Positions 2,954-26,290 of a DNA stretch of 34,959 nucleotides are shown here, piece after piece (within the stretch, counting starts at the first letter, position 1; each line of letters starts with the position of its first letter). A program made the position numbers and the translations under genes. Origin of the DNA: a virus (Duplodnaviria; Caudoviricetes); the IMG/VR virus record IMGVR_UViG_3300008255_000082, positions 1-34,959 of that record. One strand, 5' to 3'. The notes beneath the pieces were generated by a model. The model was not told the DNA's origin. It ran no database searches and saw nothing but the letters and a program-made list of their open reading frames with translations.

Positions 2954-4788
2954 GCAGGTCTTATGGAATGTGGGTTCTTGGAGTTTTAGCTGTGTTAATT
3001 GTTGCTTTGTTGGTCCAGGCTTTACCTTTTAGGGTGAGTGATGATTTACAGATGGAGCAAAATGATATTTATAATGCGTCTAATATTAACGGTACAACCT
3101 TTTGGCAGAACGGCACTAAAGTTCTTGACACTGGAAGCCTAGCCGGGTTAAATAATACTAACAGCTCGAATTTTTGGGATAACCTTGATGTGCCTGGTGA
3201 TTTGAATAATAAGCTTCAGCTTAGTTGGCTTAATATCACTGGTAAGTTGATTAATAGCACGGACACTCCATGGTTCGTGATCGTAAACGGGGAGTTGCGG
3301 GTGAATGCTACGACACTTACGTCTTATGCTGCTAATTATACGGTGAATAACAGTTTGCATATAGGTCAAGCGGTGGACATGATTCAATTAACGAACCAGA
3401 TTCAGCTTCGTCAGGAGAACATTACTAATGCTTTTGTTATTGCGGTTGATAATGTGAGTCTTTACATGACAGGTTTGGATAATGAGAGTATGAGGGTTAA
3501 TGGAACGTGGATTAACACTACTATTGGAGAGTTGGACACTGATACGCGTGTTGGTGCGCTTACTTCTTATTTGATAAACACTAGTGTTGCTATAACTTTT
3601 AATGAGTCTAAGCTTAATCAGACGATTGAAGAGCTTGATACGGACACGAGAGTAGGCAGTCTTGTACCATACCTTTTGAATAATAGTGTTCGTATAGATT
3701 TTAATGAGACTAAACTAAATCAGACTGTTGAGGAGTTAGATACGGATACAACATATAGTAACAGTACAGGTATTATCCTTAATGGTACAGTGTTTAGTCT
3801 TCCTAGAGACTGTTCGGGAGCGGAAGTTTTGAAATATAATGTAACTTCTGGCCTTTGGGAGTGTGAGGTTGATGAAATCGGTACAGGGGTTAATAATGCT
3901 ACTGTTGATGAACGGATTGATCTTGCTGAGCCTGATCTGAATGTGAACCAGTCTGGCTTTTGGGATAACCTTGATGTGCCTGGTGATTTGACAAACTTGT
4001 TCACCCTAGACTGGGCTAACATTACCAACCGTTTTATAACGGCTGTGAATGAAAAATGGTTTTACATGGTGGGAAGTACGCTGACACTTAATGGCACTAC
4101 GCTGAACGCTACTATTGAGGAGTTGGACACGGATACAACGTATGATAACGGTACAGGTGTTGAGTTGTCAGGCACAACGTTTCAGTTGCCTACTAGTTGT
4201 GGAGCGTCTGATGTTTTAACGTGGAATGATACGAGTTCGTTCTGGGATTGTCTTGTACCTCCTGGAAGTACGTACTCTAATAGTACTGGTATCGTGCTTA
4301 ATGGTACAGTGTTTAGTCTTCCTAGAGACTGTTCTAGTGCGGAGATTCTTAAGTATAATGTGACTACGAATTTGTGGGAGTGTGAGGTTGATGAAAGCGG
4401 TACAGGGGTTAATAATGCTACTGTTGATGAACGGATTGATCTTGCTGAGCCTGATCTGAATGTGAATAGTTCTGATAGGTGGGACGATTTGGATACGCCT
4501 ACTGATATAACGTCAGTGGGTACTTTAACAAGCCTTACGGTTAGTGGATCGGTTAATCTAGGTCTTAACTGGACACTGTTGCAGAATTATCCTAGTGCTT
4601 GTCCTTATGGAACGTACCTTACAGAGTTGGCTGATAGTGTGATTTGCACGAGTGTATCTCATGCTACTGCTGGTTTGAACATTACAAAGAATGTGACTGT
4701 TCAGCCGAATAACAGGTATTGTTTGGATGGTGATTGTAATGCGAGTGTGTATAAGAATAGCAGTAACGGGTTGGTGTACTTAGGATGA
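2950..4788 (+). CDS. Exported, repeat-containing fibre-like glycoprotein
   Basis: ATG 2950 coupled to the upstream stop; N-terminal hydrophobic signal; about 40 N-x-S/T sequons by hand count; repeats ELDTDT x4, FWDNLDVPGDL x2 and TYSNSTG..LNGTVFSLPRDC..W.C. Confidence 0.8.
   Translation: MSRSYGMWVLGVLAVLIVALLVQALPFRVSDDLQMEQNDIYNASNINGTTFWQNGTKVLDTGSLAGLNNTNSSNFWDNLDVPGDLNNKLQLSWLNITGKLINSTDTPWFVIVNGELRVNATTLTSYAANYTVNNSLHIGQAVDMIQLTNQIQLRQENITNAFVIAVDNVSLYMTGLDNESMRVNGTWINTTIGELDTDTRVGALTSYLINTSVAITFNESKLNQTIEELDTDTRVGSLVPYLLNNSVRIDFNETKLNQTVEELDTDTTYSNSTGIILNGTVFSLPRDCSGAEVLKYNVTSGLWECEVDEIGTGVNNATVDERIDLAEPDLNVNQSGFWDNLDVPGDLTNLFTLDWANITNRFITAVNEKWFYMVGSTLTLNGTTLNATIEELDTDTTYDNGTGVELSGTTFQLPTSCGASDVLTWNDTSSFWDCLVPPGSTYSNSTGIVLNGTVFSLPRDCSSAEILKYNVTTNLWECEVDESGTGVNNATVDERIDLAEPDLNVNSSDRWDDLDTPTDITSVGTLTSLTVSGSVNLGLNWTLLQNYPSACPYGTYLTELADSVICTSVSHATAGLNITKNVTVQPNNRYCLDGDCNASVYKNSSNGLVYLG
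3856..4466 (+). repeat. Intragenic direct repeat, 92 bp (3856..3947 and 4375..4466, one mismatch)
   Basis: Direct comparison; offset 519 nt is in frame; a further 34-bp repeat lies at 3172..3205 and 3958..3991. Confidence 0.9.
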
Positions 4789-15880: not shown

Positions 15881-15941
15881 AATGGTGGGGGTGAAGCGTT
15901 TGGTTTTTCCTCTTTTAACCAAACGCTTCACCCCCACCATT
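15881..15941. repeat. Perfect 25-bp inverted repeat with 11-nt loop
   Basis: aatggtgggggtgaagcgtttggtt / aaccaaacgcttcacccccaccatt. Confidence 0.95.
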
Positions 15942-15945
15942 GCCC

Positions 15946-16161
15946 GATAGTGTATACACTATTTGTATACACTCGTTGGATCCGAGAGGCGCATCTCTAT
16001 AACTAAGCACAGGCATAAAATGGTGCGCTTCTCGGTAACGTGCTAGTATATTAGGTTCTACCTAGTTGGTAGGCTTATAAATATACGGTTTTGGTTACGT
16101 AGTAACCGGGTTGTTTTGCACGTTTTGGTTGGAGGATAGTGTGTACAGTTAGTGTATACAC
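15946..16161. promoter_or_regulatory. Two tandem operator-like pairs of GTGTATACAC (15946..15972 and 16135..16161)
   Basis: Each pair begins GATA and has a 13-bp period; they flank a TATA-like TTATAAATA at 16075. Confidence 0.6.
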
Positions 16162-16195
16162 AACTGGGCTAGAAAAGAGAGGGAGGATAGATAGA

Positions 16196-23007: not shown

Positions 23008-23187
23008 ATGAGAGAACAAAAAGATATTGAAAGGTTGTACAATTTTGTTGGTGCATTCAATGAAGGTAGGTTTATGAATCAGGATTATCGTCGAGGAATA
23101 ATAGATGCACTCTCATATGTTTTGTATGGGGGGGAAGTTCTTGAAACGGTTTTGATTAAAGCATCCAACTTAAGCAAAAAAAAATGA
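23008..23187 (+). CDS. Hypothetical protein (59 aa, missed by the ORF track)
   Basis: GGGGG RBS; MREQKDIERLY...YRRGIIDALSYVL. Confidence 0.5.
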   Translation: MREQKDIERLYNFVGAFNEGRFMNQDYRRGIIDALSYVLYGGEVLETVLIKASNLSKKK

Positions 23188-23366
23188 AGAAAGTAGGTGA
23201 GTGCTGACCAATCCAACCAAATAACCTGCAATTGCAGTGGGTAGCTAACATTCATTAGCATTTTATGGGAGTCAGTTCACCGCGAATCAGATATGCAGAG
23301 AGAGATATATTTAAATATTGTTAAACGAAATTTGAGATGTTCAATTACATCAAGGAGATAAAACAA

Positions 23367-23510
23367 ATGACAAAAGTTAAAGAAATAAAAACGCAAAAAG
23401 CCATTAGACGAAGCAAAATAACTGTTAAAAGTTTAATCGCTAATGTAAGAAAAAAATTAAATATAATAAAATTAAGGTGCTACAATGAAAGAATACTCAA
23501 AATTACGTGA
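23367..23510 (+). CDS. Short basic ORF, possible truncated cassette gene
   Basis: AAGGAG RBS; 47 aa; reads through the core at 23456. Confidence 0.35.
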   Translation: MTKVKEIKTQKAIRRSKITVKSLIANVRKKLNIIKLRCYNERILKIT

Positions 23511-23537
23511 AAGGTTTATAGAAAAAGGTGTAGAATA

Positions 23538-23756
23538 ATGTCACTGGAAGATAAGGTAAAACATTGTAACCATAATACTGTTGAACATATTGGAACGCAA
23601 GAAGGCTTCGGCGATATTCCAAGTATCGAATTAGCCAATTGTATGAACTGTTATACAACCATCTCATTTTCAAGAGAAGCATATGAACCAAACAAAAACT
23701 ATAACAACAAACAAATATACACCAAAAAGAAATTAAATGAACAAAAGAGCACATAA
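23538..23756 (+). CDS. Small zinc-ribbon protein
   Basis: CNH...CMNC; C-terminus encoded by the 81-bp repeat. Confidence 0.55.
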   Translation: MSLEDKVKHCNHNTVEHIGTQEGFGDIPSIELANCMNCYTTISFSREAYEPNKNYNNKQIYTKKKLNEQKST

Positions 23757-23768
23757 TAGGTATTAAAC
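23688..23768 (+). repeat. 81-bp direct repeat, copy 1
   Basis: Identical to 25311..25391; ends in GGTATTAAAC. Confidence 0.95.
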
Positions 23769-23790
23769 GAAATTTGAATTTGAGGCTACA

Positions 23791-24033
23791 ATGAAAAAAG
23801 AATATTACCAATCTAAAGAATATGAGGTATTTGAAAGTAAAGAAATGATTTTAATATTTAGACGGACATTTTTTGGATTATATAAATGGATAAAAAGTTT
23901 CAACAAAGAATACTATAAATATGAAGAAGATGATAAAATGATTATAGTTGTTGAAACTAACGCCTCAAATTCAAACTCAAGCTCAGCTAAAGCTGAATCG
24001 TTTAATAAAGGTTATGAGGTAAATCAAAAATGA
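23791..24033 (+). CDS. Hypothetical cassette gene
   Basis: GAGG RBS after a core; its stop lies inside hairpin element A. Confidence 0.55.
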   Translation: MKKEYYQSKEYEVFESKEMILIFRRTFFGLYKWIKSFNKEYYKYEEDDKMIIVVETNASNSNSSSAKAESFNKGYEVNQK

Positions 24034-24083
24034 TTTACCCAAATGGCTACGCCACTTCTCATAACCTAAATATTAAATGCAAT
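23983..24083. other. Branched hairpin element A (attC-like)
   Basis: TAAA-loop hairpin, TCGTTTAATA, 10-bp outer stem, two inner hairpins, 3-nt bulge, TATTAAAT. Confidence 0.75.
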
Positions 24084-24100
24084 AAGATATGTGGCTCAAA

Positions 24101-24418
24101 ATGAAGATGATAATAAGAATGTGTGACCTTTTGGGATATGGCTCACAAGATGATGAGTATGATTTCCCAGTTAAAGGACATAATCTTAAAGATGAAGATG
24201 TCATAGTCTTTATCAATTCAGAATTGTATGAAGAAGGAGAAAATCTTGAAGTGAAAAAGATTATCAAAAAAGAAGAAGGTTGTTATAAGAGTTCACGCTT
24301 TTTTGAATATCAAGATGCTAAAGATGAAGGTTTCAAATCTTGGGTAAATTTTTTCCCGTTGAAAGACTATAAAAAAGGTCTTGGAAAATATACTAATTAT
24401 AAAGTCACACTTGAGTAG
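24101..24418 (+). CDS. Hypothetical protein
   Basis: Starts about 25 nt after the core at 24072. Confidence 0.6.
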   Translation: MKMIIRMCDLLGYGSQDDEYDFPVKGHNLKDEDVIVFINSELYEEGENLEVKKIIKKEEGCYKSSRFFEYQDAKDEGFKSWVNFFPLKDYKKGLGKYTNYKVTLE

Positions 24419-24435
24419 TTCACAAGGTTGCTAAG

Positions 24436-24669
24436 ATGACAATGCCAATGAAAATAATCACGGACAAGATTGATTGGGTTAGAGAATTTGAAGATTTATA
24501 TTATGCGTGGAATAAGAAGTCAGAGAAGCTCGGAAAACTTAAATATGAAAGAGTTGGGAGACATATGCACTGGTGTTGGTATCAGGAAGAAGATATACGG
24601 ATGTCTCCAGGATGTTTACAGATTGTCCGTGATATTCAAAAGAGGTTAAAATGCGCCGGAAGAAGTTAA
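24436..24669 (+). CDS. Hypothetical protein
   Basis: 77-aa Trp-rich ORF. Confidence 0.6.
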   Translation: MTMPMKIITDKIDWVREFEDLYYAWNKKSEKLGKLKYERVGRHMHWCWYQEEDIRMSPGCLQIVRDIQKRLKCAGRS

Positions 24670-24673
24670 TCAA

Positions 24674-25327
24674 ATGAATAAGATAAAAGTTTTAAACTTG
24701 TATGCTGGAATCGGAGGAAATAGAAAACTTTGGGAAAATGTGCAAGTTACGGCAATAGAAAACAATCCAGAAATAGCCGAAGTGTATAAAAAATTATTTC
24801 CTCAAGATGAGGTTATAGTTGCAGATGCTCACAAATACCTTTTAGAACATTACAAAGACTTCGATTTTATTTGGAGTAGTCCCCCATGTCAAAGTCATTC
24901 TAGGTGCAATCATTTTTTAAAAGGACAAGGAATTGTTCGCTATCCAGATATGAAATTATATGAGGAAATAATTTTCCTTCAAACTCATGCAAAGTGCCTC
25001 TGGGTAGTTGAAAATGTTAAACCTTATTATGAACCCTTAATTGTGCCTCAAAAATGCGGTAGGCATTGCTTTTGGTCAAACTTTAATATCACACCCAAAG
25101 ATTTTGATTATCAAATCGGCACAATGAATAGAAAAGCAAATAAACATTCTCAAAGAAAAGCAATTATTAGAGAGGCACAGATACCTGAACTTATTGATTT
25201 ACATGGTTTAAATAATTTAGATATTCGGCTAAAGAATAAAAGACAAGTTCTCCGTAATTGTGTATTGCCTCAATTAGGTTTGCACATTTTCCAAGAAGCA
25301 TACAGAGAACCCAAACAAAAACTATAA
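24674..25327 (+). CDS. Short DNA (cytosine-5)-methyltransferase
   Basis: Motif I LNLYAGIGG, motif IV SSPPCQSHS, motif VI VVENV, motif X-like RQVLRNCV. Confidence 0.9.
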   Translation: MNKIKVLNLYAGIGGNRKLWENVQVTAIENNPEIAEVYKKLFPQDEVIVADAHKYLLEHYKDFDFIWSSPPCQSHSRCNHFLKGQGIVRYPDMKLYEEIIFLQTHAKCLWVVENVKPYYEPLIVPQKCGRHCFWSNFNITPKDFDYQIGTMNRKANKHSQRKAIIREAQIPELIDLHGLNNLDIRLKNKRQVLRNCVLPQLGLHIFQEAYREPKQKL

Positions 25328-25391
25328 CAACAAACAAATATACACCAAAAAGAAATTAAATGAACAAAAGAGCACATAATAGGTATTAAAC
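25311..25391 (+). repeat. 81-bp direct repeat, copy 2
   Basis: Identical to 23688..23768. Confidence 0.95.
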
Positions 25392-25435
25392 TCAATAAAG
25401 TCATCCACCTCTAAGCGTGGTTCAACATAATTAAA

Positions 25436-26194
25436 ATGGAAATACAACACAACCAAATATATAATGAAGATTGCTTACAATTTATGAAGCAACTGCCTGA
25501 CAAATACATTGACTTAATCATAACTGACCCTCCTTATGGAATACAAATGACTTCAGACGGCTTCGGCGGTTCAAAGAACGCAGATAAAACTGAATATATC
25601 AAAGTTGAAAATTGGGATAAAGAGACGCCATCTGAAGAAGTTTTTAAAGAAATGTTGAGAGTCAGCAAAAATCAAATTATCTTTGGAGGGAATTATTTTA
25701 CTGATAAGTTGCCTACGAGTTTGTGTTGGGTTTGTTGGGATAAAAGATGTGGTGTTACTCCTGAACGAACTTATGCAGATTGTGAATTAATTTGGACAAG
25801 TTTTAATCAATCTGCAAGAATGATAAGATTTGTTTGGGATGGGTTCATTCAGGACACCAAAAATAAGATTAAAGACAAGAGATACCACCCAACACAAAAA
25901 CCAGTAGAAGTTTTAAGGCAACTTATCAAAAGATTTGCCAAAGAAGGGGATTTGATTTTTGACCCATTCGCAGGTTCAGGCAGTTTTTTAGTTGGGTGTA
26001 AGCAATTAGGATTTAAGTTTGTTGGTTGTGAAATCAATAAAGATTATGTTGAAATAGCAAATAAAAGACTGGCTCAACAATCGGTGGCTGATTTTACTCA
26101 ACCTAAAGGTTGCCCTAAAGGGTCGTTTAATAGCGATTTAAAGGAAGTTTCTGACGAAACTTCCAATATTGTTGCTACGCAACAACATCTTTAA
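25436..26194 (+). CDS. Beta-class N6-adenine/N4-cytosine DNA methyltransferase
   Basis: DPPY, HPTQKP, FDPFAGSGS. Confidence 0.93.
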   Translation: MEIQHNQIYNEDCLQFMKQLPDKYIDLIITDPPYGIQMTSDGFGGSKNADKTEYIKVENWDKETPSEEVFKEMLRVSKNQIIFGGNYFTDKLPTSLCWVCWDKRCGVTPERTYADCELIWTSFNQSARMIRFVWDGFIQDTKNKIKDKRYHPTQKPVEVLRQLIKRFAKEGDLIFDPFAGSGSFLVGCKQLGFKFVGCEINKDYVEIANKRLAQQSVADFTQPKGCPKGSFNSDLKEVSDETSNIVATQQHL

Positions 26195-26215
26195 ATCGCA
26201 GATATTAATCGCAAT
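26099..26215. other. Branched hairpin element B (attC-like)
   Basis: Same architecture as element A with different stem sequences. Confidence 0.75.
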
Positions 26216-26290
26216 AAAGGAGAGTGCTTGTAAGATGGAAAATAGTAGGGGATAAAAAAATTCCGTTGGAAGATTTAGAAGAGGTGAAGG

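Follow-up and report, generated by a model that had tools for sequence, protein, structure and literature searches.

A partly decayed array of integron-like gene cassettes in a complete virus record, with a XerA-like protein of the host as its probable recombinase

How can a virus that has no recombinase of its own come to hold what looks like a row of genes inserted one by one at a short repeated motif? This question is raised by IMGVR_UViG_3300008255_000082, a complete virus record of 34,959 nucleotides (nt) assigned to Caudoviricetes, with 123-nt terminal repeats, which was analyzed at its full length and is called the window below. Terminase, portal, capsid and tail genes were found in the record, and directly upstream of a ParB-like gene (26291) and the packaging genes lies an A-rich island (~23200-26250) with a G+C content of 0.30-0.33 vs ~0.40. 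A sequence-only reading of this DNA had taken six short cores in the island for the attachment sites of integron-like cassettes, served by a host enzyme in trans and carrying two methyltransferases as cargo. Our analysis suggested with good confidence that the island consists of mobile gene cassettes in a partly decayed array, that these belong to a family found in DPANN archaea and their virus-like elements, and that they were inserted by a host XerA-like recombinase acting in trans in the fashion of an integron integrase. The evidence bearing on recombination, circular forms and methylation consists of sequence comparison and computed folds. No tyrosine recombinase was found among the 58 frames of the virus by a Pfam scan, nor any PF00589 candidate in a six-frame search of the entire record, which agreed with the earlier reading.

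The six cores start at 23320, 23456, 23762, 24072, 25385 and 26204, and GTTTAAT inverse cores at 23431, 24000 and 26125, all as reported before; each core has an ATG 29-51 nt behind it, although the one after core 26204 opens merely 6 codons. Within 23280-26240 the core motif, (G/A)TTAA-N4-AAT(A/T)(A/T), was counted 6 times, whereas 500 dinucleotide shuffles averaged 0.44 (0/500 as high), and it occurred 10 times on both strands of the entire window against 2.48 expected (0/100 shuffles as high), so that it is commoner in the real sequence than in shuffled sequence; these tests overstate the excess since the motif was derived from the same sites, and independent support comes from related loci. 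The cores are not six equal attachment sites; three kinds were distinguished, namely two that close a fold, three unfolded sites and one partnerless leader. Of the five core-to-core units just two make up intact cassettes, while the rest are leaders that have lost their folded ends, and three cores are plain double-stranded sites of 11, 6 and 11 base pairs (bp) rather than attC-type ones. The features are as follows.

23304-23331, plus strand: first site, unfolded 28-bp TAA-N6-TTA (11-6-11, dif-like), with G before TT as in host insertion sites (comparison by eye); likely the insertion point.
23321-23456, plus strand: likely a remnant, with a leader and the start of a 47-codon frame (23367-23510) but without a folded end; the same leader start occurs in several related loci.
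23457-23490, plus strand: partnerless leader, followed by a 17-codon frame and a 72-codon frame (23538-23756).
23688-23773, plus strand: repeat copy 1, unfolded; its final 28 bp (23746-23773) are TAA-N6-TTA with A before TT.
23763-24072, plus strand: intact cassette A, 310 bp, with one 80-codon gene (23791-24033) of no known family.
24000-24078, plus strand: folded site A, with an outer stem, two inner hairpins and AAT/ATT at the predicted cut; -17.7 kcal/mol, z score -7.9.
24073-25385, plus strand: composite unit, 1313 bp, with a leader, 109- and 77-codon genes and a C5-type methyltransferase-like gene (24674-25327), ending in repeat copy 2.
25311-25396, plus strand: repeat copy 2, unfolded; its final 28 bp (25369-25396) are TAA-N6-TTA with A before TT.
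25386-26204, plus strand: intact cassette B, 819 bp, with one N6/N4 DNA methyltransferase gene (25436-26194; PF01555, 1.8e-28).
26125-26210, plus strand: folded site B, shaped as A with other stem letters; -25.8 kcal/mol, z score -9.0.
26205-26240, plus strand: orphan leader whose cassette body is missing, continuing into viral sequence before the ParB-like gene (26291).

Two of the inverse cores, 24000 and 26125, pair with a core in sites A and B, whereas 23431 belongs to no site: the stretch 23431-23462 does not fold (z score -0.4), lies inside the 47-codon frame and has no match to the family model, and it was rejected. The covariance model built for the folded sites matched nothing in the window besides A and B, and in related loci it detected arrays with as many as six sites; site A scored 86.8 bits, but it is part of the training set. 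Searches with outer-stem patterns gave true loci in 2/6 and 3/31 cases in viral contigs and 82 loci in genomes and metagenomes, where 73 of the 85 pattern matches passed the fold filter. Before counting, L161 and L188 (which passed the energy filter but on inspection by eye did not belong to the family), L210 and L211 (whose sequence is that of the window) and duplicate non-seed hits were left out, as was the short variant L222 from alignment A1; model R1, which contained no base pairs, was set aside. A loose pattern on the shared inner loop had returned 119 viral loci with no convincing member among the 45 best folds. Across 48 aligned sites the inner stem showed 60 cells with two-sided changes vs 15.8 in shuffles, which is covariation, while the invariant letters of the outer stem were imposed by the search pattern and are uninformative. 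Three stem pairs beyond TTA vary on one side only, which fits those letters belonging to the next unit.

The results backed the cores as cassette junctions with an integron-like logic through leader-tail pairing and through breakpoints in related DNA. The leader of cassette A at 23773-23786 is the exact complement of 23962-23975, and when the cassette was closed as a circle the computed fold gained a 14-bp leader-tail stem (-40.2 kcal/mol vs -22.5 to -30.9 with the other five leaders); no window of the island paired as well (0/2872). For cassette B, its own leader was also the best in the circle form, narrowly (-38.1 vs -29.9 to -36.9 kcal/mol). Over 52 site-to-site units, own leaders averaged -15.2 vs -7.3 kcal/mol for others, a value reached in 0/10,000 permutations, and the own leader ranked best in 29 units and among the top three in 42. 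Among the 49 units with a frame, 40 were covered to at least 60% by one gene and 39 had a start at most 60 nt from the core. In addition, L232 matched 25384-26207, that is, the methyltransferase cassette, at 92% and turned into unrelated DNA right at both cores; L239 and L374 broke at the same left core, and contigs in runs X2 and X3 began at 25384. Copies of sites A and B found elsewhere share 94-99% of their letters with them and are followed by other DNA, near-identical copies of site A preceding different DNA. Breakpoints unrelated to the cores would have counted against the earlier reading; on this point the related DNA sides with the cores, and the view of them as cassette junctions is right in the main.

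The remaining units were less complete. The leader at 23321 found its best complement in the island at ~23639-23672 with a weak -10.8 kcal/mol. Core 23456 opens a real cassette leader because contig matches begin exactly there: the six contig records listed (three runs) match 23456 to ~23490, all starting at 23456. The family model detected no folded site inside the composite unit, whose 109- and 77-codon genes belong to no known family and whose methyltransferase-like gene has motifs I, IV and VI, the patterns for later motifs being unmatched; homologues sit between folded sites in L207. The cassette A gene was blank in Pfam, PHROGs and NCBIfam. A leader nearly the same as the orphan leader heads an entire 471-bp unit in L148 and follows site B in L187. 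As to the methyltransferases proposed as a swappable locus, the N6/N4 gene indeed lies in an intact cassette, while the C5-like gene has no leader or folded end of its own.

The three unfolded cores (23320, 23762 and 25385) each have a left arm of 11 bp that ends in TAA, a 6-bp spacer and a right arm of 11 bp that begins with TTA, which is the layout of the 28-bp dif site with two 11-bp arms and a 6-bp spacer (PMC2958812). Two of them, 23762 and 25385, are held by the direct repeat 23688-23773/25311-25396 (98% over 86 nt), whose copies are identical across 81 nt ending at these cores, behind two unrelated genes. The repeat was also tried as a degenerate folded site and rejected, having no fold and no plus-strand match to the model. 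A 17-base piece of it found 6 loci in viral contigs, unrelated beyond the match, and no relative of the repeat was present among the loci collected. An ATG in each copy opens nine codons that stop at the core TAA whatever cassette follows (23735-23764 and 25358-25387); this may be a leader for translational coupling or the beginning of a gene that was interrupted. Elsewhere, in L230, two unfolded sites have common upstream letters behind an ATG.

A search of host genomes pointed to a candidate enzyme. One true site was found in a genome titled Candidatus Pacearchaeota (L164), and matches to the site model occurred in 33/151 genomes of the order of the Pacearchaeota genome (G001), in 49/151 of its phylum and in 2/79 of the order of the Bathyarchaeota genome (G002). 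Some tyrosine recombinase is held by 30/32 site-bearing genomes, and in at least 9/32 it stands on the same contig, divergent from the sites; arrays of the Pacearchaeota order begin 40-95 nt from a divergent XerA-like gene, and one recombinase-bearing array contig is 511 kb long with an SRP54 gene next door. The ten array-adjacent recombinases (nine genomes) have 267-275 residues and match the XerA model NF040815 best, in one stretch, with 8/10 over the cut-off. TIGR02249, the IntI model, stayed below its cut-off in all ten and was split in two where the extra domain specific to IntI (PMC9668308) would sit. Five further recombinases were also best as archaeal XerA and none as IntI, and a midpoint-rooted tree, built with no outgroup, set the ten array-adjacent enzymes apart from these five at 100/100. 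A leader-type arm lies within ~95 nt of the recombinase start in all ten host platforms, three of them in the strict TAA-N6-TTA form. The enzyme for the cassettes is likely a XerA-like protein without the IntI insertion rather than an integron integrase. Cargo of the host cassettes includes a type I restriction system, a HerA-domain protein and metabolic genes. Host arrays in L298, L301 and L302 start, within the first 250 nt behind the recombinase, with a folded unit that contains no gene and is nearly alike in all three.

The host of this tailed virus is likely a DPANN archaeon; the archaeal assignment is suggested by the range of the folded-site family and by repeated TATA-like gene starts in the virus. 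A host enzyme in trans is proposed because the virus has no recombinase and host arrays start beside a XerA-like gene. By analogy with integrons (PMC4792948) and CTX-phi (PMC3442271), a circular single-stranded cassette would fold, the host XerA-like recombinase would act in trans on the virus and carry out a single strand exchange, just ahead of TT, between this fold and an 11-6-11 site in duplex form, and replication would complete the insertion. The methyltransferase cargo would shield viral DNA against restriction by the host, and the other genes, having lost their folded ends, would have become fixed where they stand. DNA methyltransferases made up 16 of 47 cassette genes taken from related loci, while 2 were of other families and 29 of none; the methyltransferase share may be biased, as the seeds came from the window.

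One letter at the predicted cut separates two types of site. The pair next to the cut was C-G in 38/45 and T-A in 5/45 distinct sites of host genomes, the five T-A sites lying on two short contigs without any C-G site; on contigs found via A-type seeds, that is, seeds with AAT/ATT, non-seed sites had T-A in 42/45 and C-G in 0/45, with 3/45 unresolved. Unfolded sites agreed, with A in 14/14 on A-type contigs and G in 10/10 host insertion sites (read by eye). The compensatory change from AAC/GTT to AAT/ATT proposed from the window is hence real and two-sided. Several A-type contigs are classed as viruses (G000, G003-G005 and G403); others carry virus-like genes, and many are too short to tell. 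A-type sites were also seen on L164, L172, L173, L268 and L290. These contigs are assigned to genomes of Pacearchaeota, Bacteroidales and Bathyarchaeota, although several may be misbinned virus contigs. For IntI1, partner sites need the same first base beside the cut: recombination drops 1,000- to 10,000-fold when the two differ and recovers when both are changed alike, and orthogonal site pairs have been built in the laboratory (PMC2811028). If this rule holds for the XerA-like enzyme, sites with A before TT would recombine mostly with their like and those with G before TT with theirs, so that virus-type and host-type cassettes would form two separate pools. We tentatively suggest, at somewhat less than even confidence, that DPANN viruses use the host Xer-type enzyme and run a private cassette library, the G to A change at the cut making their sites orthogonal to those of the host. 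Viruses could then trade methyltransferase and other genes without taking host defence cassettes or losing their own to the host, and the split would be a natural counterpart of the laboratory site pairs.

Several observations weigh against a mobile array served by the host enzyme. A folded end is missing from three of the five units, and the deletions behind 26240 and within 24073-25385 lie away from the cores, although the breakpoints in L232, L239 and L374 coincide with them. The end pairing of cassette B taken by itself is weak, as 197/2872 island windows pair as well, and 10/52 units rank their own leader outside the top three. No circle joint of either cassette was listed in contigs of seven runs, contigs being a form of data that drops rare forms. 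In run X1 the 81-nt repeat collapsed to one piece, which makes the order of the middle units dependent on the assembly; the middle unit had a depth of 13-18 vs 20-24 in that run, which is not readable as a share of genomes, and runs with small shares (X2-X15) were not used for habitat. The covariance model was trained on A-type seeds and alignment A2 was fitted to its structure, the viral nature of most metagenome contigs was judged from gene content only, and the window's own first site is G-type, so this virus is not purely A-type. Host platforms seen were all G-type, while an A-type array in L176 adjoins a distant tyrosine recombinase. As regards the host, genuine folded sites also lie on contigs filed under one Bathyarchaeota and one Bacteroidales genome. 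Finally, folded sites occurred in 1/27 related virus records and 0/6 near-complete ones, and a capsid-protein search gave 80 loci, one with folded sites; terminase as a single-protein probe gave 24 stretches, none confirmed. Because few related records carry folded sites, the array represents occasional capture at a tolerant place and is no standing locus of the virus group. The related virus that does carry them, G403, whose capsid is 62% identical, counts in favor of the array: four sites surround three genes that we read as having methyltransferase motifs, ~2.4 kb ahead of the ParB-like gene, every tail pairs best with the leader of its own unit, and the third methyltransferase-like gene is 57% identical to the window's.

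The G-type host platforms and the L176 recombinase leave room for another explanation, in which the sites are cassette junctions and the A-type cassettes were moved by a different enzyme, either housekeeping XerA or the recombinase of other viruses or plasmids. CTX-phi uses XerCD. Such an enzyme would suit the dif-type layout of the unfolded sites (PMC2958812) and the presence of some tyrosine recombinase in nearly all site-bearing genomes, and the L176 protein (L176:976-1866, ~26% to the XerA-like set) is a candidate virus- or plasmid-borne enzyme. However, that gene lies directly downstream of the array and convergent to it, and it was the sole tyrosine recombinase among 86 large frames of 16 long A-type loci; the A-type and the G-type site have their fold in common and are both detected by a single model, and several A-type unfolded sites have left arms matching, by eye, the host insertion sites beside array recombinases. 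We consider a different enzyme unlikely, if still plausible. Somewhat less doubtful, though short of being favored, is that the island is a dead relic, its cassettes captured once, partly by homologous or illegitimate recombination, and now immobile. Four of six leaders lack a folded partner, most relatives lack sites, contigs of the runs examined held no circle joint, and the 81-nt repeat, with its diverged 5' extension, looks like a homology-driven duplication; yet sites A and B are intact and nearly identical to copies with other DNA after them, cassette B has exact core boundaries against L232, and the identity of the repeat copies over 81 nt makes them recent. A dead relic concerns present activity and can hold together with capture by the host XerA-like enzyme as its origin.

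Two readings without recombination fared worse. The folds might be RNA elements, such as terminators or stability hairpins, with the cores as translation or promoter signals, and it is true that most genes read into the fold (36/49 stop inside), that the inner hairpins score terminator-like and that a TATA-like box overlaps the first site; nevertheless, leader-tail pairing across a joint existing only in the circle, the last three stem letters varying with the next unit, and arrays starting beside a recombinase are left unexplained, and Rfam gave three matches in the window with E ~3, far under the cut-offs, so this account is highly improbable. That the cores are chance matches in A-rich DNA has a negligible probability: the motif was chosen post hoc, 23431 is such a match and the loose first pattern yielded nothing convincing, but the folds, the family covariation, the leader-tail pairing and the L232 breakpoints oppose it, related DNA already refutes it for five of the six cores, and the sixth, the first site, fits the pattern of host insertion sites.

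The preferred reading, cassette capture through a host XerA-like enzyme, can be set against known systems. Archaeal integrons with a true IntI and attC clusters have been published (Ghaly et al., 2022; PMC9668308), and Data S1 of that paper includes genomes that have attC clusters but lack IntI, 6 of them from Pacearchaeales and 6 from Woesearchaeales; these clusters may represent the folded-site family in its G-type form. Integron cassettes, including clusters of attC sites lacking integrases (CALINs), resemble the present ones in their promoterless-looking single genes, each closed by a folded site in one orientation, in the crossover predicted just before TT and in the host insertion site beside a divergent recombinase. 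Sites A and B, 2.1 kb apart on the same strand, each closing one gene with no integrase, fit the definition of a CALIN as two or more co-oriented sites within 4 kb and, like attC, are imperfect palindromes that fold as single strands with paired outer and inner boxes, the bottom strand folding slightly better than the top in both. In contrast to the conserved AAC and GTT triplets of attC (PMC4889954), they carry AAT and ATT. Extrahelical bases in the inner box of attC select the strand (PMC4792948), whereas the inner stem has no bulge in A, B or alignment A1 and the unpaired asymmetry lies in the spacer, with 8 nt in 42/48, 9 in 5/48 and 7 in 1/48 sites vs 6 nt on the other arm, which was fixed by the search pattern. 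Furthermore, pairing of leader and tail lengthens the stem past the cores, the linked enzyme resembles XerA and lacks the IntI insertion, and the virus has no integrase gene beside its array. The array is thus integron-type cassette capture and not a member of the integron family.

Phage-borne attC clusters with orphan methyltransferase cassettes and no integrase, for which anti-restriction was proposed, have been reported (Qi et al., 2023; PMC9892861) and are alike in cargo and in lacking an integrase in the virus genome; according to that report they are bacterial, with GTT sites recombined by IntI1 with attI1, whereas here the virus is probably archaeal and its A-type sites are predicted not to pair with G-type ones. 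In the reaction of CTX-phi attP(+) with dif, as described, a folded strand of two inverted arm pairs with unequal spacers meets a double-stranded dif-type site via a host enzyme, and ligation needs pairing next to the cut (PMC3442271). There the entire phage enters the host chromosome, while here small genes would enter the virus by a putative enzyme. Read from sequence, the anatomy of integrative mobile elements exploiting Xer (IMEX) fits, with a folded single-stranded site, a dif-type site and a candidate host Xer-type enzyme, but the units are 310- and 819-bp genes in a complete virus record rather than a single element at the host chromosomal dif. pdif modules of Acinetobacter plasmids likewise place accessory genes between 28-bp 11-6-11 sites for host Xer in trans, although their sites flank the modules inversely with matching 6-bp spacers (PMC13141974), whereas all island sites face one way, their spacers differ and the intact cassettes end in a fold. 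A XerA-linked cassette platform or A-type sites were not found in the published literature searched, which included a review of archaeal tyrosine recombinases and left most subscription papers uncovered.

If correct, these results would supply the likely enzyme for the integrase-less attC clusters of Pacearchaeales and Woesearchaeales. Cassette logic run by a plain XerA-type protein would also bear on the origin of integrons from Xer recombinases, and it offers viruses of uncultured archaea a route to change DNA methylation gene by gene, the array in the window being a half-decayed example.

Other observations in the window concern the surroundings of the island and the rest of the virus. Just upstream of the first core, the intergenic stretch 23193-23284 is modestly structured (RNA fold z score ~-2.1 to -2.2 on both strands) without an Rfam match. 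Given an A-run at ~23178-23187 and the TATA-like box, which extends over part of the first site's left arm, a short minus-strand RNA is possible there. The window has no tRNA, and a sigma-70 promoter scan was at chance level (14 vs 14.8 expected). The four-base palindrome CGCG occurred 10 times in the virus vs 27.7 expected, and no tie to either methyltransferase was made. Two intergenic repeat pairs (16846-16908/20838-20900 and 29016-29046/31531-31561) are 97% identical, end just before gene starts and look like archaeal promoters of leaderless genes. In a non-coding gap, a perfect 25-bp inverted repeat adjoins a longer-range inverted repeat (15881-15973, 16138-16169), a candidate replication origin. 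Additionally, a 619-codon gene has internal repeats at 3497-4511, with a 102-nt spacing and a 234-nt duplication, and is probably a tail or surface protein.

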